Source: Bacilli bacterium (GTDB lineage: Bacteria > Bacillota_I > Bacilli_A > RFN20 > DUOF01). From it: a stretch of DNA of 64,000 nucleotides. The translations under genes were made by a program, and so were the position numbers. Every line of letters starts with the position of its first letter. Within the stretch, counting starts at the first letter, position 1. The stretch spans positions 5,431 to 69,430 of the forward strand of contig JAZKZZ010000015.1 in assembly GCA_045612885.1 (NCBI GenBank), in the 5' to 3' direction. Shown here one piece after another: positions 2,034-62,800 of the stretch. Below the pieces are notes generated by a model that saw only the letters and a list, made by a program, of their open reading frames with translations, ran no database searches and had not been told where the DNA came from.

Positions 2034-2569
2034 TGAATATATGGCACGACATAGATGATTCTAGAATTAAAGAAGAATCATTTATTGTATGTATAGAAAT
2101 CTCTAAAGGTAGTAAGAAAAAATATGAGTTAGATAAAGAAACTGGTTTAATAATTTTAGATAGGATACTTTATACATCTACCCATTACCCTGCAAATTAC
2201 GGTTTTATCCCTAAAACGTACGCAGAAGATGATGATCCACTTGATGTATTAGTATTATGCCAAGAATCACTAGAGCCACTATCTCTAGTAAAATGTAGAC
2301 CACTTGGAGTAGTCAAAATGATTGATAGTGGCGCTGTAGATGAAAAGATTATTTCTGTAGTAGAAAATGATCCTTTCATGGCAAACTATAAAACCATTGA
2401 TGACTTGCCTTCACATATGATTGAAGAAATGATGCATTTTTTCAGAGTATATAAACAACTTGAAGGTAAAGACACATATATAGAAAAAGTAGAAAATATA
2501 GATAGTGCGAAAAATATAATTAATAATTGTATTAAAAGTTATCAAATTAAATTTAAAAATAAAAAATAG
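2030..2569 (+). CDS. ppa: Inorganic pyrophosphatase (family I)
   Basis: DDDPLDVLVL and YPANYGFIP motifs. 179 aa. ATGA overlap with the upstream PFOR stop. Confidence 0.9.
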   Translation: MMNIWHDIDDSRIKEESFIVCIEISKGSKKKYELDKETGLIILDRILYTSTHYPANYGFIPKTYAEDDDPLDVLVLCQESLEPLSLVKCRPLGVVKMIDSGAVDEKIISVVENDPFMANYKTIDDLPSHMIEEMMHFFRVYKQLEGKDTYIEKVENIDSAKNIINNCIKSYQIKFKNKK

Positions 2570-2594
2570 GAATTCAAACGAATTCCTTTTTTTT
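2568..2594. terminator. Bidirectional rho-independent terminator between ppa (+) and the DUF4116 gene (-)
   Basis: ggaattc-aaac-gaattcc hairpin flanked by an A-run on the left and T8 on the right. Confidence 0.7.
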
Positions 2595-3537
2595 ATCTTT
2601 TATTAGTTGAATCTTTAATTACACTTTCTTTAGACTTTTTCTCGCTCAACTCTTCAAATATTTTGTATTCTCTTCGTAAAGAGGATAAAGCTTTAGACTT
2701 ACTGTTTTTAACTTTTTTAGTCTCACTATTTTTATTTTCATTAGCAGCCGCTACAACATCAGGATCATTTTTCATTTCAGGGCTTACGAATCGTATATAA
2801 TATGGATTTTGGCTCACTGCTGCTAGTACAACATCTCTATCACCTTTCAATTCTTCGCTTATGAATCTTATAGAACCTGGCTCATTAGCCACTGCCGCTA
2901 GCGCCACATCTTTATCTCCTTTTAGTTCTTCGCTCGCGTATTGTAAAGCAAATCCATAATTTTTAACTGCCGCCATCACCACCTCTTTATCATTTCTTAG
3001 TTCTTCACTAAGGTACATCAAAGACTCTCCGTTATTATCAAGAGCAGCAAATATTACTTCCCTATCTTTCTTTAACTCTTCACTGGCATAGTTTATAGCA
3101 TTACCTGTATTACTGACTGCCGCTAAAACTACTTCCTTATCATTTTTCAACTTTTCACTGGCATAACGTAAAGCATAACCATCTTTACTAACGGCTGCTA
3201 ATATTACATCTTTATCGCTTCGAAGTTTATCCCCAACATACACCAAAACAGCAGGATTGCGCTTAACTGCCAACAATACCACTTCTTTGTCATTTCGTAG
3301 TTGTTCTCCTGCATATCCGAGCGCAATTCCTTGCTTACTAACAGCAAACTGCACCAACTCTTTGTCATTTCGTAGTTCTTCGCTAGCCCATCTTAAAAAT
3401 GAAGCGTCAACATCTAATAAAGCCAACACAACATCTCTATCCGATAACGCCTCTTTTGTCAAAAATGACTCATAGAAAGTTGGATCTGAATTTTTTATTT
3501 TCTCTATATATATCTTTTTTTCTTCATTAGATAGCAT
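2593..3537 (-). CDS. DUF4116-type repeat protein (seven to eight ~36-aa repeats)
   Basis: Recurring L(R/K)NDKEVVLAAV..G.AL.YASEEL units typical of DUF4116. No signal peptide. Confidence 0.7.
   Translation of the reverse strand: MLSNEEKKIYIEKIKNSDPTFYESFLTKEALSDRDVVLALLDVDASFLRWASEELRNDKELVQFAVSKQGIALGYAGEQLRNDKEVVLLAVKRNPAVLVYVGDKLRSDKDVILAAVSKDGYALRYASEKLKNDKEVVLAAVSNTGNAINYASEELKKDREVIFAALDNNGESLMYLSEELRNDKEVVMAAVKNYGFALQYASEELKGDKDVALAAVANEPGSIRFISEELKGDRDVVLAAVSQNPYYIRFVSPEMKNDPDVVAAANENKNSETKKVKNSKSKALSSLRREYKIFEELSEKKSKESVIKDSTNKR
2728..3390 (-). repeat. Intragenic tandem DNA repeat, ~108-nt period, encoding the DUF4116 repeats
   Basis: Visible periodicity in the DNA: variants of ttcttcact-gcata-cgtaaagc... 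recur about every 108 nt. Confidence 0.55.
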
Positions 3538-3650
3538 GTTAAACCCTCCATCAAATATTATCTATTATTTATTTTAGCTTTTGATATTATCCAAATCAAG
3601 AAAGTTTTCAAGATTACCACATATCATACTTTTATAAAAATAAATTATTT

Positions 3651-4316
3651 TTATTCATTATTCCAATCAATTTCTTCTCTATTATGATTCTTTAGAAATT
3701 CATTTGCTTTAGAGAAATGCTTACACCCAAAAAAGCCATTATAAGCACTAAGAGGAGATGGATGAACTGTCTCTAATACTAAATGATGTGGGTTAGTAAT
3801 TAAAGCCTTTTTAGTTCTAGATGGTCCTCCCCATAAAATAAACACTTTTGGAGTATCATCATCATTTAATTGCTTAATTACTCTATCAGTAAATATTTCC
3901 CATCCTTTATTTTTATGAGCCATGGGTTTAGAATCTACAACACTCATAATTGTATTCAATAATAAAACACCTTGTTTAGCCCATTTAGTTAAATCACCAT
4001 GATTAGGTATGTTATATCCTAAATCACTATTAATTTCTTTATATATATTAACTAAACTTGGAGGTACTTTAATTCCCTTATTAACTGAAAAACATAATCC
4101 ATGAGCTTGATTAACTTGATGATATGGATCTTGCCCTAAAATAACAACTTTAACATCTTTAAAATCAGTTAATTCAAAACATCTAAATATATCTTTTTTA
4201 GCAGGATATACAGTCTTTGTATTATATTCATTAACTAAAAATGATTTTAAATTTTGAAAGTACTCTTGTGCTATTTCATTGTCTATAAATTCTTGCCAAC
4301 CATTTGTAATTTTCAT
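3651..4316 (-). CDS. ung: Uracil-DNA glycosylase (family 1)
   Basis: GQDPYH water-activating motif and HPSPLS leucine-intercalation loop. 221 aa. Confidence 0.9.
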   Translation of the reverse strand: MKITNGWQEFIDNEIAQEYFQNLKSFLVNEYNTKTVYPAKKDIFRCFELTDFKDVKVVILGQDPYHQVNQAHGLCFSVNKGIKVPPSLVNIYKEINSDLGYNIPNHGDLTKWAKQGVLLLNTIMSVVDSKPMAHKNKGWEIFTDRVIKQLNDDDTPKVFILWGGPSRTKKALITNPHHLVLETVHPSPLSAYNGFFGCKHFSKANEFLKNHNREEIDWNNE

Positions 4317-56213: not shown

Positions 56214-56340
56214 CTCATTAAAATTAGAATATCATAAATTATGCTCCATTTAATCAATATATACGATTTATTTTAAAAATTTAGAAAATACTAAGGACAA
56301 TTATTTATTATTTTATATAATAAACTAAGAGGTGTTTTAG

Positions 56341-58092
56341 ATGGAAAAAGTAGTTAATTACACATATTATGCAATATTGCAAGATGATAATAACTTAATT
56401 AAAAAAGATAAAATTTTTGTTCAGCATAATAATGCAAGATTACTATTTCCAATAAGTTTTGATAAAGAAACATTGGAAAAAAACTACAGCATATATAAAG
56501 AGATGCTCGAAGAAGGATTTATACATAGTCAAGAAATTAATAAATTATCATTTAACCTGTTAGAAATACATAAAAGTTTAACCTGTGATAATTGGAAAAT
56601 TTTAATTGATTTTGCAAAAGAACATAATATCAATTTTAGAGTCAATATCAAAGAAGAATATACTCCCGAGGAAATGTCTAATTATATCCAATCTTTTATA
56701 AAAAAAGAAAATGGCATAGAAACATTTGTTTTTAAAAGAGAACAATTAGAAAACCCAGAAAATCCATTTCTAGAAGGTATAGAAAATGATGAAAATATTT
56801 TTAAAGATTCAAATGTAAATACTTGTTTTTATATTAACAATGAATTTAGAGATAATTTCAAGTCGCAAATTCATAAATCACTAGAAAGATTTAATGGCCA
56901 GATGACATTAAATTTACAAAGTGGTAAAAGTTTCGATAATGACGCTAAGGAAGAAGTGATTTGGAGGATTAATTACTTAAAAGAAAATTACCCTGATAAA
57001 AAAATTGATATCACTTTTTCGACTGCTAATAGATATTATCTTAAAGAGGAATTCATTAAAATTTTAGAAATCGAAGAATACATCAAAAATAACTATAATC
57101 CTGAATATGAGTTGCGATTTACAGGAAATAATAAATTTTACAATAAAGAACAAATAGTATCCGCTAATAGTAAAATTAATAGAACAGTAGATAAATTAAA
57201 ACTTTCTAATTTATCACCATACGAAAAAGTAATGTTTATAACAAAATTATTAAATGAAAAAAAGTATTACAAATGTAAAAGTAATGATTCTCTTTCAAGA
57301 GATTTATATAGCATATTAAACACTAGAAATATTATCTGTACAGGATATGCTTATTTGATGGATGTAATCTTAAATGAATTAAATGATGAAAATATCAAAT
57401 CTAAAAGTGAAACTATTATTCAAACTGATTATTTTAACCAAGAAGAATATCATGAAGTCAATTGTGTTTATATAAAAGATGAAAAATATGGCATTGAAGG
57501 ATATTATAACTTAGATATTAATTTTTATGGGGAAAATTATAATCATTTTATGACTCCAGTAACAGATATCGATTCATTGTATGCGTCTCGATATAAATCT
57601 GTACTAAAAGCTACAGAAACAACAAGGGGAAATCTTGGTGATCAAACCATGCCAATTTATCCTAATAATGAAAGCTACTATACTATTTTTACTAAATTAA
57701 AAAATAGTAATAATTGGCAAGATAATGTATTAAATAGTACAAAACAATTTTTAAGTACCCCTATGGGAAATAAAATAGCAGACAATATGGGAATTACCAT
57801 CAAAAAAGATTCAGACGCATTAAAAATCATTAATGAGATAATAGCTCAATCTCCCCCTATACCTATTGAATGCACACAAAAAGCATTAGAAGTAGTAAGT
57901 AAGTCATATTTAGGATTAAACAGTGCTCAAGCAGCAGAATATTCAAGAAATAAAATCGTAGAAAATATTTTTGATAGTTTGTTTTTACAAGAAAGAAAAA
58001 ATTGTAAAAATTGTTTTGCTAAACTTAGTAAAGAAATTGAAGAAGAAAATCTAAATAAAAATAAGGTGTGTCACGATTCTAGACATATTTGA
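56341..58092 (+). CDS. Cytoplasmic transglutaminase-like (papain-fold Cys-His-Asp) protein, 583 aa
   Basis: NIICTGYAYLMDVIL (CxGxA nucleophile context), then HEVNCVYI, then YYNLD, spaced like a transglutaminase-core triad. No signal peptide. Confidence 0.55.
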   Translation: MEKVVNYTYYAILQDDNNLIKKDKIFVQHNNARLLFPISFDKETLEKNYSIYKEMLEEGFIHSQEINKLSFNLLEIHKSLTCDNWKILIDFAKEHNINFRVNIKEEYTPEEMSNYIQSFIKKENGIETFVFKREQLENPENPFLEGIENDENIFKDSNVNTCFYINNEFRDNFKSQIHKSLERFNGQMTLNLQSGKSFDNDAKEEVIWRINYLKENYPDKKIDITFSTANRYYLKEEFIKILEIEEYIKNNYNPEYELRFTGNNKFYNKEQIVSANSKINRTVDKLKLSNLSPYEKVMFITKLLNEKKYYKCKSNDSLSRDLYSILNTRNIICTGYAYLMDVILNELNDENIKSKSETIIQTDYFNQEEYHEVNCVYIKDEKYGIEGYYNLDINFYGENYNHFMTPVTDIDSLYASRYKSVLKATETTRGNLGDQTMPIYPNNESYYTIFTKLKNSNNWQDNVLNSTKQFLSTPMGNKIADNMGITIKKDSDALKIINEIIAQSPPIPIECTQKALEVVSKSYLGLNSAQAAEYSRNKIVENIFDSLFLQERKNCKNCFAKLSKEIEEENLNKNKVCHDSRHI

Positions 58093-58158
58093 ATATAATA
58101 ACTATTTTATAAACTTTTTTAAGTTTAATTGATATAATAATAAAAAGGAGTGATGTGA

Positions 58159-58623
58159 GTGGAATCTATTTTAGAAATAATGCCCTGGATTTGGGGAGGC
58201 ATATTTGTAGTGACTCTTGTTATAGAATTTGAAAGTTCTGATTTGGATGCTTTATGGTTTTCAATCGGTGCATTAGTATCGCTTATTGTGGATTTATTCT
58301 TCCCTGAATTAGGAATAGTATGGCAACTTCTAATATTCATTCTAACAACTGTTTTGTTACTATTCACTTTAGGACGTTGGGCTAAAAAGAAATTTAGGAC
58401 AGAACATATTTCTACTAACGCGGATGCTTTAGTAGGTAAAGAAATTCTAATTTTAGAGGATTGTAGTGAATTTGATAAAGGTAGTGGGTCTGTAAATGAT
58501 GTTGTATGGACAACTATTTGTCAATCAGGATATTCTTTAAAAAAAGGTGATCATGCAATTATAGTTGCAATTGAAGGTAATAAACTTATAGTAAAAAACA
58601 AGGAGGAAGAAAAAAATGTCTAA
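58159..58623 (+). CDS. NfeD-like membrane protein (partner of SPFH proteins)
   Basis: N-terminal TM helices plus a C-terminal OB-fold-like segment. 8-nt overlap with the downstream SPFH gene. Confidence 0.75.
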   Translation: MESILEIMPWIWGGIFVVTLVIEFESSDLDALWFSIGALVSLIVDLFFPELGIVWQLLIFILTTVLLLFTLGRWAKKKFRTEHISTNADALVGKEILILEDCSEFDKGSGSVNDVVWTTICQSGYSLKKGDHAIIVAIEGNKLIVKNKEEEKNV

Positions 58624-59536
58624 TGTTGTTATTTTTATTTTAATAGCACTAGCTATATTTGTACTTATAATTATTTCAAAATCAATTGTTGTCGTTAAAC
58701 AATCAACAGCTTATGTTATAGAAAGATTAGGAGCTTATAATAGAACTTTAGGAGTAGGATTACATGTTATTGTGCCATTCTTTGATAGAATAGCAAATAA
58801 AGTAACATTAAAAGAAACAGTAGAGGATTTTCCTCCTCAACCAGTTATCACAAAAGATAATGTTACAATGCAAATTGACACTGTTGTATATTTTCAAATA
58901 ACAGATCCAAAATTATTTGCATATGGAGTTCATAATCCTATTAATGCATTAGCGAATCTGACTGCTACTACATTAAGAAACATCATTGGTGACTTGGAGT
59001 TAGATGAAACTCTAACAAGTAGAGATACTATTAATGGTAAAATGCGTTTAATCCTTGATGAAGCTACTGATCCTTGGGGTATTAAAGTTAATAGAGTGGA
59101 AGTTAAAAATATTCTTCCTCCTAGGGATATTCAAGATGCTATGGAAAAACAAATGAGAGCAGAAAGAGAAAGAAGAGAAGCTATTCTTAAAGCTGAAGGA
59201 GAAAAGAAAGCTGCAATCCTAACAGCAGAGGGTGAAAAAGAATCAACAATCCTTAGAGCAGAAGCTAAAAAACAAGCTGAAATTGCAGAAGCAGAAGGTA
59301 AAGCAGAAGCGCAAAAACTACTTGCAGATGCTCAAGCATACTCAATAGATGTAATTAATAAAGCTAATCCTAATATGGCTTATGTTACTTTAAAAGGTTA
59401 TGAGTCTTTGGAAAAAGTTGCTAATGGACAATCTACAAAGCTTATTATCCCATCTAATTTACAAGAAAGTGCAAGTTTTATCTCTTCATTAGCAGAAGTT
59501 GCTACAACAAAAAAAGCTAAAGAAGAAAAAAAATAA
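58616..59536 (+). CDS. SPFH/band-7 (stomatin/prohibitin-like) protein
   Basis: N-terminal TM anchor. SPFH core (YFQITDP...ALANLTATTLRNIIG). Coiled-coil EA-rich C-terminal tail. Confidence 0.9.
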   Translation: MSNVVIFILIALAIFVLIIISKSIVVVKQSTAYVIERLGAYNRTLGVGLHVIVPFFDRIANKVTLKETVEDFPPQPVITKDNVTMQIDTVVYFQITDPKLFAYGVHNPINALANLTATTLRNIIGDLELDETLTSRDTINGKMRLILDEATDPWGIKVNRVEVKNILPPRDIQDAMEKQMRAERERREAILKAEGEKKAAILTAEGEKESTILRAEAKKQAEIAEAEGKAEAQKLLADAQAYSIDVINKANPNMAYVTLKGYESLEKVANGQSTKLIIPSNLQESASFISSLAEVATTKKAKEEKK

Positions 59537-59547
59537 GTAATAAAAAA

Positions 59548-59575
59548 CTTAGATAATGTTATCTAAGTTTTTTTA
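59548..59575. terminator. Bidirectional terminator between the SPFH gene (+) and the 429-aa gene (-)
   Basis: cttagataa-tg-ttatctaag palindrome with an A-run on the left and T8 on the right. Confidence 0.7.
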
Positions 59576-60862
59576 TTTTCTAGAATTAATTGGATCATAT
59601 TTTATCATATAATCATGTAAGATATTCATTGTTAAAATATTAATATCTTTTAATGTTAATGTTCCTATATATTCTATGTTTTTTTCTATTTCTTTAATTG
59701 ATTTATCTTTAGTAGTTTTATCTATTATTCCATCATAAAAATTGAATCCGTCTTCATAATTGTAATAGAACCTACCATGCATTATTGAGTTACGCAATTT
59801 ATTAAAATCTATTTTGCAGTCTTTTAAATATTCTTTTACACTTTCTGGATCCATATATGTGAAAATACTAAATAAAATATTATTGGCAAGACAGGCTTCA
59901 AATCTTGATGGATACCCAAGATAATCTTGAATAGCTATTATATCTACAGGTTCTTCTTTTTCTATTTTACTATCGAAAACCTTATGCATAAATTCATTTC
60001 TAGTGATGTATTTATCTTTTAATATCGATAAGTAATTTATTGTCATACAACAATCTTTGATGGCGTTATTAGCATTGCATTTAAATGGGAATTTTAGTAT
60101 AAAGAACGAGGGATCGTAAGGGTGTATTCCCATATTTATAGTAGCTTCATCTAATCCATCACTATTTTTAATTATACAATTATATAAGGCTTTCTTTTGA
60201 AGTTTATCCATTGGAATATCAACTTTAGCATTTGGATCAAAAGCATGTATATATTTATGGACATTAAAAGGATTAAGTTTCTTATTCAATACAGCATTAC
60301 TTAACCTACTTGCATACATACTAATTCCTAAACTAGGAGGATTAATAGCATTAGTTAGGTATATATTAGCTAGGCTAACCAATTCATCAATATGTATTTT
60401 TAACTTGATTTCTTGAGATTTTAATTTTCTATGAATAATTACATTATCTTTATCATCCCACATCCAATTAGGAACTATATTTCCATCATCATTATGTGCA
60501 AAAGATTGTCTTATAATATCAAATAATTTTTTAGAATTAATTGTCTTTAAATTGCCATTTACATCAATATTAAATTTTAATTTAGAAAAATCCTTTTTAC
60601 TCTTCTTTAATGATTCATCAAAATTATCATTTACTACCTCATACAAATAGACAAAATATTGCGTTATTAAAGACCTCATAGTCAATCTTTTCATATGAGT
60701 TAATAAGCTATAGTGTTGCTCTTTATAGTATTTATTTAAACTATCTGGCAAATGATTCATTAACTTAGTATTAGGCACATATTTCCATTCATATAAAGTA
60801 TGATAAAAAAACAATTGAACTAATAAAGAATATCTATTTCCTTTCATAACTTCATTACTCAT
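59573..60862 (-). CDS. Hypothetical 429-aa protein with a C-terminal HEPN-like R-N-x3-H-G motif (candidate Abi-like RNase)
   Basis: KLRNSIMHGRFYY near the C-terminus fits the Rx4-6H HEPN signature. The rest is unrecognised. Confidence 0.5.
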   Translation of the reverse strand: MSNEVMKGNRYSLLVQLFFYHTLYEWKYVPNTKLMNHLPDSLNKYYKEQHYSLLTHMKRLTMRSLITQYFVYLYEVVNDNFDESLKKSKKDFSKLKFNIDVNGNLKTINSKKLFDIIRQSFAHNDDGNIVPNWMWDDKDNVIIHRKLKSQEIKLKIHIDELVSLANIYLTNAINPPSLGISMYASRLSNAVLNKKLNPFNVHKYIHAFDPNAKVDIPMDKLQKKALYNCIIKNSDGLDEATINMGIHPYDPSFFILKFPFKCNANNAIKDCCMTINYLSILKDKYITRNEFMHKVFDSKIEKEEPVDIIAIQDYLGYPSRFEACLANNILFSIFTYMDPESVKEYLKDCKIDFNKLRNSIMHGRFYYNYEDGFNFYDGIIDKTTKDKSIKEIEKNIEYIGTLTLKDINILTMNILHDYMIKYDPINSRK

Positions 60863-61026
60863 ATTACCACTCCAACAATATTTTATTAGAGTTAGTTATG
60901 AGTGTCAATTATAATATTTTACTCACAATAATAGTATCTATGTAGACAACAACATTTTGTATAGATGCAGCAACTAAACAAGCTATTAATCTGTTTGAAA
61001 GAAAAGGTGATTATAGTGTTTCGTAC

Positions 61027-61389
61027 TTGAGATATATCATACAAATTGCTCAAGAAAACATAGAGAAAGAGTTCAACTATCCAGTCAGTGAATACTCGGA
61101 CTGGTATATAGTTAAGTGTAAGATGACTGATGAAGAAGCTAGACAGTCAGAGATGGAACACAGAGTATTTCAAATAACAGAGAATAGGAAGATAATCTCA
61201 CTATTCACTGAAGAATTGAAAAAGAGAGAAGAGTTAACTATGGATGAAATCTATAATCATCTGAAAGATAAGTATTACTTGTGTGTTAGTAAAGATAAGA
61301 GTGAGAGTGACTCATATATGAAAGGTGTATATGTAGGCGTGGCACTAGCATATCAAGACATATGTCAGTTGCTTAAGATGGAGTTATGA
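61027..61389 (+). CDS. Small ORF (120 aa, TTG start) inside a GC-richer segment. Probably a 5'-truncated gene remnant.
   Basis: The frame stays open back to 60946 with no ATG and no good SD. Codon usage is unlike the host. Confidence 0.35.
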   Translation: MRYIIQIAQENIEKEFNYPVSEYSDWYIVKCKMTDEEARQSEMEHRVFQITENRKIISLFTEELKKREELTMDEIYNHLKDKYYLCVSKDKSESDSYMKGVYVGVALAYQDICQLLKMEL

Positions 61390-61577
61390 CATACAAGGAA
61401 CAACTAAATGAGTTCAAGAGTCAAGATAGACTAAATCATGTAGAGATAGCAATAGCACTGGAAGTAGAATCATACTTTGAGAATGCAAGTGATGATCAAT
61501 TTGAATCTATATGCAGTTACATCAAAAGAATCTACCATACTAAGAGCAGAAGCCAAAAAGTTAGCCCAAATAGCTGA
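61386..61577 (+). CDS. Small ORF (63 aa), ATGA-coupled to the previous one, running into the SPFH-fragment frame junction
   Basis: Overlapping start/stop atgA. C-terminus out of frame with the adjacent SPFH fragment. Confidence 0.3.
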   Translation: MTYKEQLNEFKSQDRLNHVEIAIALEVESYFENASDDQFESICSYIKRIYHTKSRSQKVSPNS

Positions 61578-61809
61578 AGCAGAAGGGCAAGCACAGGCTG
61601 AAAAAGCCATATACGAGGCACAAGCTTATGGTATTAAAATAGTCAACGAAGCCAACCCAGGAAATGCTTACTTAACGATAAAAGCCTATGAGGCACTGAA
61701 AAATCTAGCAGAGGGCCAATCGACTAAAATCATAGTTCCTTCTAATTTACAAGAACTGGCAGGCCTAATCACTTCTATAAAAGAAATCGCTGACGACAAA
61801 AATAAATAA
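61537..61809 (+). pseudogene. 3' fragment (last ~90 codons) of a second, divergent SPFH/band-7 gene. No start codon.
   Basis: It encodes SKESTILRAEAKK...AQAYGIKIVNEANPGNAYLTIKAYEALKNLAEGQSTKIIVPSNLQE. This is colinear with the C-terminus of the intact SPFH at 59230-59536 (KESTILRAEAKK...GQSTKLIIPSNLQE) and shows clear nucleotide divergence from it. Confidence 0.7.
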
Positions 61810-61821
61810 CACGCATGTAAA

Positions 61822-61858
61822 AACCTCCAAAGTAGAAAAATCTATCTGGAGGTTTTCT
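61822..61858 (+). terminator. Rho-independent terminator after the SPFH fragment
   Basis: cctcca-(17-nt loop)-tggagg followed by ttttctt. Confidence 0.55.
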
Positions 61859-61964
61859 TGTGCGCTCCCACTTTAATTCGCATTTGAATTCTACAATGCG
61901 GTAAACAAGATCATAAGCGTACACATCTACTATACTTATAAATCTTTTGTTTTTATAGTAAAAG

Positions 61965-62507
61965 TTAGAATCTAAATTGTTTTATTTCTGCGTTTTTAAA
62001 ACTTCTTAAATGATTATCATTATTAAAATCAACATCAATCTGTAAAAGCAAGTCTTCTAAAAACGTAGCATTGCAATTATGCGTTATGATTAATATACTA
62101 TCAAACACGCAATTATTTTTTATGTCTATAAGAAAATCTTTTGTTCTATCATACGCACTTTGATAACTTTCCATACCACAAGATTCTGACCTGGAATATT
62201 TAAGTGTTTTTTCCTTTTCAGTCAAATCATATTTGCTTCTACCTGTAAAAATCCCTTGATCTATTTCAATAAGTCTTTTGTCTTTTATAACTTTTACATT
62301 ATGAAATTTATTCATTATGTTTGCAGTTTGCACAGTTCTCATAAGTGGTGAGCAATAGATTATATCGAAATTAGTATTCTTATATTTTTCAGCGACCTCT
62401 TCTGTCAACGCTATTCCTTTTTTGCTTAGCCTATTATTAGTATGTCCTTGTGTAATACCTTTTTCATTCCAAATTGTTGTCCCATGTCTCATTATATACA
62501 ATTTCAT
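61965..62507 (-). CDS. Histidine phosphatase (phosphoglycerate-mutase-like superfamily)
   Basis: N-terminal LYIMRHGTT (RHG catalytic motif) and a later H in ITHN. 180 aa. Confidence 0.8.
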   Translation of the reverse strand: MKLYIMRHGTTIWNEKGITQGHTNNRLSKKGIALTEEVAEKYKNTNFDIIYCSPLMRTVQTANIMNKFHNVKVIKDKRLIEIDQGIFTGRSKYDLTEKEKTLKYSRSESCGMESYQSAYDRTKDFLIDIKNNCVFDSILIITHNCNATFLEDLLLQIDVDFNNDNHLRSFKNAEIKQFRF

Positions 62508-62726
62508 TTACACATCTCCTAAACACATCATTAATTCTTCTTATATACTTATTGTAAATCAGTTGATTGCATTTTTCAAGCAACTAAAAAAAGCAATTTG
62601 TTTTGTTTTTTACAAATTAATTGCATATTATGATGACAATATTGTAATTATCTGTAATTCCCTAGATAAATCCTTAAAAAGAAAAAACAAACCCTTTAAT
62701 TTAAAAGAGTTCGCATATGACTTTCA

Positions 62727-62800
62727 TGGTGCTCTTTACCAGAATTGAACTGATACTTAATCCTTACCATGGATTTGGTCTACCATTAACCTAAAAGAGC
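62727..62800 (-). tRNA. tRNA-Thr (anticodon GGU), 74 nt, CCA encoded. Not represented in the ORF track.
   Basis: Hand-folded cloverleaf: acceptor GCTCTTT/AAAGAGC; D-loop AATGGTA; anticodon stem AATCC/GGATT; loop ATGGTAA (U33, GGU, A37); T-arm ATCAG-TTCAATT-CTGGT; discriminator A; CCA. Confidence 0.8.

Follow-up and report, generated by a model that had tools for sequence, protein, structure and literature searches.

We analysed a 64,000-nucleotide stretch of contig JAZKZZ010000015.1 from a Bacilli bacterium (assembly GCA_045612885.1; positions 5,431 to 69,430 of the forward strand), hereafter the window. Its minus strand carries a gene (59573..60862, stop codon included) whose product is best read, from profile comparisons, as an internal tandem duplication of a HEPN domain of the pEK499_p136 type. 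The open reading frame (ORF) starts with ATG and encodes 429 amino acids (aa), exactly as described in a preliminary description made from the letters of the DNA. That description had portrayed the product as an orphan with one standalone HEPN domain, recognised by an R-N-x3-H-G motif in its C-terminal region. We find instead a tandem pair of domains within a family of relatives: the motif is indeed present, in the more diverged second repeat, and another one, which had been missed, lies in the first. We consider it moderately probable that the protein is a single-chain tandem-HEPN ribonuclease (RNase) with a role in defence or genetic conflict.

The C-terminal region of the protein reads KLRNSIMHGRFYY. 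The motif described previously, R357-N-S-I-M-H362-G-R364 (motif 2; 59771..59794, minus strand), lies there at the end of a predicted helix (residues 353-361), which is followed by a beta-hairpin. Sites of the form R[NQ]xxxH occur three times in the protein, compared with 0.037 expected from its own composition, and once in total among the remaining 54 long ORFs of the window (~19,300 aa). The first alignment of homologues (A1) showed that RN[SA]xxHGR is invariant and revealed a second invariant motif, R118-Q-S-F-A-H123-N124 (motif 1; 60491..60511, minus strand), at the C-terminal end of a predicted helix (residues 110-121). Conservation was then scored over 70 full-length relatives with a mean column identity of 18%. 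Only four columns were invariant, namely R118, H123, R357 and H362, and a further set of positions was conserved in at least 90% of the relatives (N124, D219, Q222, N358, G363, Y376 and D377). The third site, R288-N-E-F-M-H293, was considered as an additional catalytic motif and rejected, since it is not conserved in the alignment. At the level of sequence, a catalytic HEPN pair would be expected to show just this pattern, with selection acting on the R and H of its two Rx4H motifs and on hardly any other residue. Both motifs also have a polar residue after the arginine (R118-Q and R357-N), as is usual for the Rx4-6H pattern in the catalytic branch of HEPN domains.

The two motifs occupy equivalent positions in two halves of the protein that align with each other. 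In profile–profile comparisons with hhalign, the N-terminal half (residues 1-205) matched the C-terminal half (206-429) over 138 columns (probability 88.5%, E=2.7e-6). For comparison with a known HEPN family, a profile was built from the founding protein encoded by plasmid pEK499, which has 166 aa, is annotated as 'HEPN family nuclease' and matches PF18736 with E=1.1e-49, together with 118 relatives collected from it. The N-terminal half aligned with this pEK499_p136 profile at 90.7% probability (E=1.2e-6; residues 30-178 to pEK 14-156) and the C-terminal half at 68.8% (E=4.5e-5; residues 287-426 to pEK 3-157). Reversed and column-shuffled controls did not exceed 0.6% (E≥0.1). In all the real comparisons, the Rx4H motifs, the following beta-hairpin and the last helix were in register. 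Because the two halves are homologous and each aligns with pEK499_p136 with its motif in register, an internal duplication is the reading that we prefer. The N-terminal repeat, supported by hhalign, by PF18736 matches in family members and by the pEK499_p136 hidden Markov model (HMM), would span approximately residues 5-180 (60323..60850, minus strand), and the C-terminal repeat, which appears to be the more diverged copy, approximately residues 261-426 (59585..60082, minus strand). Between them, translation and conservation delimit an inter-repeat region (residues 181-260; 60083..60322, minus strand), with the near-invariant D219 and Q222 in a DKxQKxALYN helix, that falls outside both the N/C and the pEK499_p136 alignments.

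Searches with individual family members support the same assignment. PF18736 ('HEPN pEK499 p136') matches 17 of the 70 relatives (best E=1.8e-7), and a few of them match other HEPN families in Pfam, namely RiboL-PSP, Swt1, MAE_28990 and Cthe_2314. In a single member, P0062, the PF18736 match exceeds the gathering cutoff (28.1 bits against 26.6), and it falls in the N-terminal repeat (residues 76-161). When the pEK499_p136 HMM was compared with sequences rather than profiles, N-terminal halves were detected in 17 of 70 members at E≤0.1, and none of the reversed controls was. Together with the invariant R and H residues and the hhalign links, these matches place the motif in a HEPN-type domain at the sequence level, as had been suspected. 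The window protein by itself retrieved nothing significant from Pfam, NCBIfam, PADLOC or PHROGs. It has no match to PF18736 at E≤1 and is, hence, below the gathering threshold of that model, a score that some distant family members alone attain or come close to. The preliminary statement that the protein has no other recognisable domain, thus, holds for this sequence alone and fails for its family. Since the protein lies below the PF18736 threshold and has a duplicated architecture, we treat it as representing a new tandem family, related to PF18736 yet separate from it.

The opposite view is that the protein is not a HEPN protein, and that another helical fold keeps its two R-x4-H pairs for ligand or nucleotide binding or for non-nuclease catalysis. 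The original HEPN domains, those of nucleotidyltransferases, are themselves non-catalytic (PMC3710099). An AlphaFold2 model computed with A1 was compact and confident, with a predicted local distance difference test score (pLDDT) of 80.6 and a predicted template modelling score (pTM) of 0.85. A Foldseek search against PDB found nothing (best E=0.11), and fold searches with the whole-chain and C-terminal domain models retrieved no HEPN structure above noise. The HEPN fold that structure prediction might have confirmed was, therefore, not recovered, and no structural similarity to solved HEPN domains was found. PDB searches at the sequence level, with the protein or the A1 profile, returned only spurious low-complexity matches (RecA fusion constructs, Mediator and NSP4). 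The pEK499_p136 HMM detected no C-terminal half in profile-to-sequence mode (best E=0.25), which leaves the second repeat tied to HEPN by profile–profile scores of moderate probability only. The outcome of the fold searches, the weak tie of the second repeat and the lack of a significant Pfam match for the window protein itself count against the HEPN assignment. Counting against the proposed role are the negative searches for defence models and mobile elements, the housekeeping neighbours and the synteny in the window clade, all presented below.

Set against them are the Pfam matches in family members, including the one above the curated cutoff, and the alignment to pEK499_p136 over ~140 columns, which extends through the post-motif hairpin and the last helix and has clean controls. 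In the model, helices 110-121 and 353-361 each carry a motif at their C-terminal end, and beta strands and a long helix come next. HEPN motifs are placed at a helix end and the start of the next loop (PMC3710099), and the predicted topology is consistent with that layout. Since the motifs sit at helix ends as HEPN requires, and since no structure has been solved for the pEK499_p136 family, the failure of the fold searches does not clearly refute the assignment. A non-HEPN fold is, in our estimation, improbable.

HEPN RNase activity needs two HEPN domains, brought together either within one chain, as in Cas13, or between chains, as in HepT and ApeA (bioRxiv 10.64898/2026.03.20.713152). We propose that the window protein is a pseudo-dimeric HEPN RNase in a single chain, which would have arisen by tandem duplication of a pEK499_p136-type domain. 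Each repeat would contribute one Rx4H motif (R118/H123 and R357/H362), and the two repeats would pack together so that the motifs form one composite, metal-independent RNA-cleaving site within one polypeptide, as in Cas13, and not between two subunits, as in HepT, Csm6 or ApeA. This arrangement is proposed by analogy with all characterised catalytic HEPN enzymes, and it is intramolecular because a single chain contains the two repeats, each with a strictly conserved motif. As no antitoxin is present and the promoter looks constitutive (see below), the enzyme would have to stay silent, or have a narrow specificity, until it meets a trigger. Gating could reside in the inter-repeat region, which is conserved and has 80 residues including D219 and Q222, or in a conformational change upon binding of the trigger. 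The protein would then act as a one-gene conflict or defence module, in which a phage-triggered RNase leads to growth arrest or cleaves the RNA of the invader, and low-GC gut Bacillota would have its gene on the chromosome as an accessory one. We, thus, infer for this protein an RNase activity, an intramolecular juxtaposition of its motifs, a trigger and a role in defence.

The designation of the protein as an orphan could not be maintained. A word-indexed search found 14 homologues with 27–100% identity, nearly all of ~410-432 aa, and an exhaustive profile search of 1.84 billion representatives retrieved 100 clusters, mostly of 380-450 aa (family range 380-490 aa). They come from gut Bacillota metagenomes and are chromosomal. 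A pattern scan with A1 found loci in only 3 of 185,579 species representatives, and there is no paralogue of the gene elsewhere in the 64-kb window. The family had no match in collections of phages, plasmids and IMG/VR viral contigs, and none of the PADLOC-DB v2 families matched at E≤1. No association with defence islands was found either; the neighbours are housekeeping genes, and they vary by lineage. They include SHOCT and LPG synthase genes, an ABC transporter, and UvrC with HisRS; in other lineages, we found a DinB-type (IMS family) polymerase gene and a methyltransferase, with SecG, PGK and TIM further along, or a sporulation-type cluster (YqfD and YbeY), as well as RecX, ACPS and a class I aminoacyl-tRNA synthetase gene (tRNA-synt_1 family). 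No partner gene recurred across 12 or more loci.

The clearest variation in gene content was seen in three loci of metagenome-assembled genomes (MAGs) of the 'Candidatus Onthoplasma' type (L001, L007 and L015). They share a frame of SecA, thymidine kinase (TK) and rubrerythrin genes, with amino acid identities of 91% for SecA, 93–94% for rubrerythrin and 77–83% for TK. One paralogue type (type A), accompanied by an ORF of 108-110 aa, lies between SecA and TK in L007 and L015 and is absent from L001. A second type lies between TK and rubrerythrin in L001 and L007 and is absent from L015. L007, consequently, has two copies (136-1416 and 2538-3773), ~41% identical, on either side of the thymidine kinase gene, which points to duplication or repeated acquisition of the family at one site. 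Positional orthologues at these loci are only 50–70% identical. Judged from these comparisons, the gain and loss of copies within a conserved frame suggests an accessory conflict gene with fast turnover. The abortive-infection or toxin role put forward in the preliminary description is a plausible one, and the variable presence of copies in related genomes is the one observation that speaks for it.

In the window clade, five independent metagenome contigs (L002–L006) with an 82%-identical orthologue share the block 58099-60916, at ~83% nucleotide identity, and have a tRNA-Thr identical to that of the window (62727-62800, minus strand). The gene is, thus, syntenic in all five, and its divergence is ordinary: 82% amino acid identity, compared with 72–97% for its neighbours (SPFH, 96%; NfeD, 87%; Ddl, 80%; Mur ligase, 75%; biotin-protein ligase, 72%). 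Conserved synteny and an ordinary rate of evolution would also fit a stable cellular function.

The transcriptional signals of the gene point to an independent unit. A sigma-70-type promoter (TTGACA-17-TAAAAT; 60880..60908, minus strand), with 11 of 12 matches in the promoter scan, lies within the block kept in L002–L006. It looks strong and constitutive, and a ribosome-binding site read from the sequence, GGAGTGG (60867-60873), stands between it and the gene. At its other end, the gene converges on the NfeD-SPFH operon, with an AT-rich hairpin in between (59543..59572, no strand assigned) flanked by A6 and T7. The predicted folding energy of this hairpin is −13.2 kcal/mol (z=−4.0), and none of 200 shuffled sequences folded equally well. 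It was not called by a stock terminator scan because it has fewer than three G-C pairs. The hairpin is, thus, real, and likely to be a bidirectional terminator, as previously proposed. With its own promoter and terminator, the gene is monocistronic.

These observations bear on the main rival explanation, in which a tandem-HEPN RNase serves housekeeping or stress-responsive RNA processing (rRNA or tRNA maturation, or mRNA turnover) in small-genome, low-GC gut Bacillota. HEPN enzymes of the Las1 and RNase L/Ire1 types serve cellular RNA jobs in eukaryotes. Such a function would agree with the housekeeping neighbours found in every lineage examined, the apparently strong and constitutive promoter, the lack of an antitoxin, the synteny and ordinary rate of evolution in the window clade, and the absence of the family from phages, plasmids, viral contigs and PADLOC models. 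It is harder to reconcile with a family that is very small and patchy, as indicated by its 100 clusters and by the three species representatives in the pattern scan, and whose genomic position varies between lineages. Nor would it account readily for the copies gained and lost in the SecA-TK-rubrerythrin frame, with two 41%-identical paralogues at one locus, or for positional orthologues only 50% identical next to neighbours that are 83–94% identical. We consider a housekeeping role unlikely, albeit ahead of the other two rival explanations, an unrecognised toxin and a non-HEPN fold.

The toxin explanation holds that the protein belongs to an unrecognised toxin–antitoxin (TA) pair, as its toxin, and that either a small protein encoded next to it or an unlinked factor neutralises it, in the manner of HepT-MntA or RnlA-RnlB. 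HEPN toxins are common in TA systems (PMC3710099), and the ORF of 108-110 aa comes after the copy upstream of TK in two related MAGs and is missing where that copy is missing. This ORF (L007:1467-1793 and L015:7310-7642) lies directly downstream of the type A paralogue, its two versions are 45–48% identical and have no Pfam match, and it may encode a lineage-specific partner or immunity protein. A tblastn search found it neither in the window nor at any other locus. The conserved adjacent antitoxin gene of HepT-MntA and RnlA-RnlB has, thus, no counterpart beyond an ORF that goes with one paralogue type at two loci only. No MNT, RnlB-like or other antitoxin family adjoins the gene, no RNA antitoxin-like repeat was found in the window, and the gene stands alone between its own promoter and terminator. 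The search for an antitoxin or partner ORF that had been recommended yielded none conserved across loci. A TA toxin of this kind is, in our view, a rather remote prospect.

Two small ORFs upstream of the gene (61027-61389 and 61386-61577) were also considered as partners or antitoxins and rejected, being part of an insertion absent from L003–L006. In those four contigs, the tRNA-Thr is only ~210 bp upstream of the promoter of the gene. The window instead has 1.8 kb of inserted DNA (60917-62725) between the promoter and the tRNA-Thr, comprising the two small ORFs, a foreign C-terminal fragment of an SPFH protein and a histidine-phosphatase (His_Phos) gene (61965-62507). The ORF containing the fragment (61477-61809, plus strand) encodes only the last ~110 residues of an SPFH/Band-7 protein (Band_7_C, E=9e-4); its DNA matches the 3' end of the resident SPFH gene (58616-59536) with 68% identity and is richer in GC (~35%). 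From these features, we regard it as a pseudogene fragment from another lineage. A donor 'empty site' with the order SPFH–His_Phos–tRNA-Thr was sought through metagenomic relatives of the His_Phos gene; none of the five loci recovered had SPFH or tRNA-Thr nearby.

The preliminary description had set the gene next to a compositionally atypical, foreign segment. The atypical composition was borne out, with a GC content of 34.7% in the bin 61001-62000 and ~27% in the window as a whole. The gene itself, however, is outside the segment: to judge from the related contigs, the segment is a separate insertion beside the gene, and the gene belongs to the conserved backbone of the window clade. Because relatives lack the insertion, the foreign segment provides no evidence that the gene is located in an island. 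Part of the insertion (60950-61535) is 74.6% identical to genes that end a VWA/DUF3846 element in L002. There, beyond the tRNA-Thr (L002:1-3202), small genes (VWA, DUF3846 and unknowns) form an operon in the place where the window and L003/L004 have the biotin-protein ligase gene; this operon is probably a mobile element that has integrated. The surroundings of the tRNA-Thr look like a hot spot of recombination or integration.

The NfeD-SPFH operon has variable DNA on both flanks. On its far side from the gene, an ORF of 583 aa (56341-58092, plus strand) lies in a strain-specific segment (56284-58098) that L002, L005 and L006 lack, the sequences on its two sides being directly joined there. 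No family matches the ORF significantly, and its hit to a transglutaminase core is weak (E=0.026). Elsewhere in the window, a 75-bp tandem repeat (2.2 copies, 77% matches) occurs at 3055-3216, inside the minus-strand ORF 2593-3537, and is unrelated to the HEPN gene.

A more far-reaching version of the reading as a single-chain tandem-HEPN RNase can also be formulated. The protein might be a minimal, CRISPR-independent enzyme whose pre-assembled site responds directly to a cue of infection (phage RNA, a protein or a nucleotide), with sensor and effector combined in ~430 residues. The Cas13-style intramolecular pair would then have arisen a second time, independently, from an ancestor of the pEK499_p136 type, and the protein would be a one-gene defence system of a new kind. 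We put this forward tentatively, as a possibility that we would not call probable.

Outside Cas13 and a few dyads fused to sensors, HEPN domains pair by dimerisation and are controlled by antitoxins or ligands. A compact protein with both HEPN halves and no partner gene, thus, raises the question of how a pre-paired site is kept silent, and could serve as a small scaffold for work on HEPN gating. The analysis also gives a name to ~100 clusters of unannotated gut Bacillota proteins and extends PF18736, which covers them marginally. Should the protein be only a diverged HEPN toxin, the result would be a useful annotation and an unsurprising one, given the great diversity that HEPN proteins are already known to have in conflict systems. 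The tandem pEK499_p136-type architecture is new and, in view of this diversity, not a categorical surprise. In our literature searches, no description of a tandem or pseudo-dimeric HEPN of the pEK499_p136 type was found.

Among known systems, the closest in sequence is the pEK499_p136-like family (PF18736), whose members are predicted to act as catalytic HEPN RNases (Anantharaman et al. 2013, PMC3710099). It has in common with our family the RN(S)xxH motif, the helices before it, in which an acidic residue is conserved, the post-motif beta-hairpin and the final helix. Its classical members are single-domain proteins of about 155-170 aa, within a range of 150-200 aa, mostly from Proteobacteria and plasmids, and some are encoded in restriction–modification, Pgl, NamA or ART operons. 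The tandem family, in contrast, is a fused pair with an 80-residue linker, is 380-490 aa long, is chromosomal in gut Bacillota and lacks such operon partners.

In HepT-MntA and other HEPN TA systems, the toxin is a homodimer of single-domain chains, and an MNT antitoxin is always encoded next to it; there is no such gene here. By lifestyle, the protein resembles ApeA, also a one-gene system without an antitoxin. In ApeA, a cue from the infection gates the HEPN RNase, whose active-site cleft is built from two HEPN motifs (bioRxiv 10.64898/2026.03.20.713152). ApeA differs in having ~600 aa, with one HEPN domain and an N-terminal sensor domain, and in forming homodimers, and the window protein has no match to the PADLOC model of ApeA.

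With Cas13, the protein shares two HEPN domains in one polypeptide, each with a conserved Rx4H motif; the composite site is established for Cas13, and for the window protein we would predict one. This architecture is common to both and is not evidence of membership. A type VI CRISPR effector was considered and rejected, as the 64-kb window contains neither a CRISPR array nor a CRISPR RNA family and the protein is too small for a crRNA (CRISPR RNA)-binding architecture. No RNA family or repeat array was found beside the gene, and no CRISPR array is apparent among the called genes of related loci. Precedents for two HEPN domains per chain exist in the dyads of Csx1 (MJ1666 type) and of eukaryotic Swt1, which are fused to CARF/Rossmann or PIN domains, the Swt1 dyad being listed as inactive. 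Unlike these, the tandem protein lacks any sensor or further enzymatic domain and has two intact motifs.

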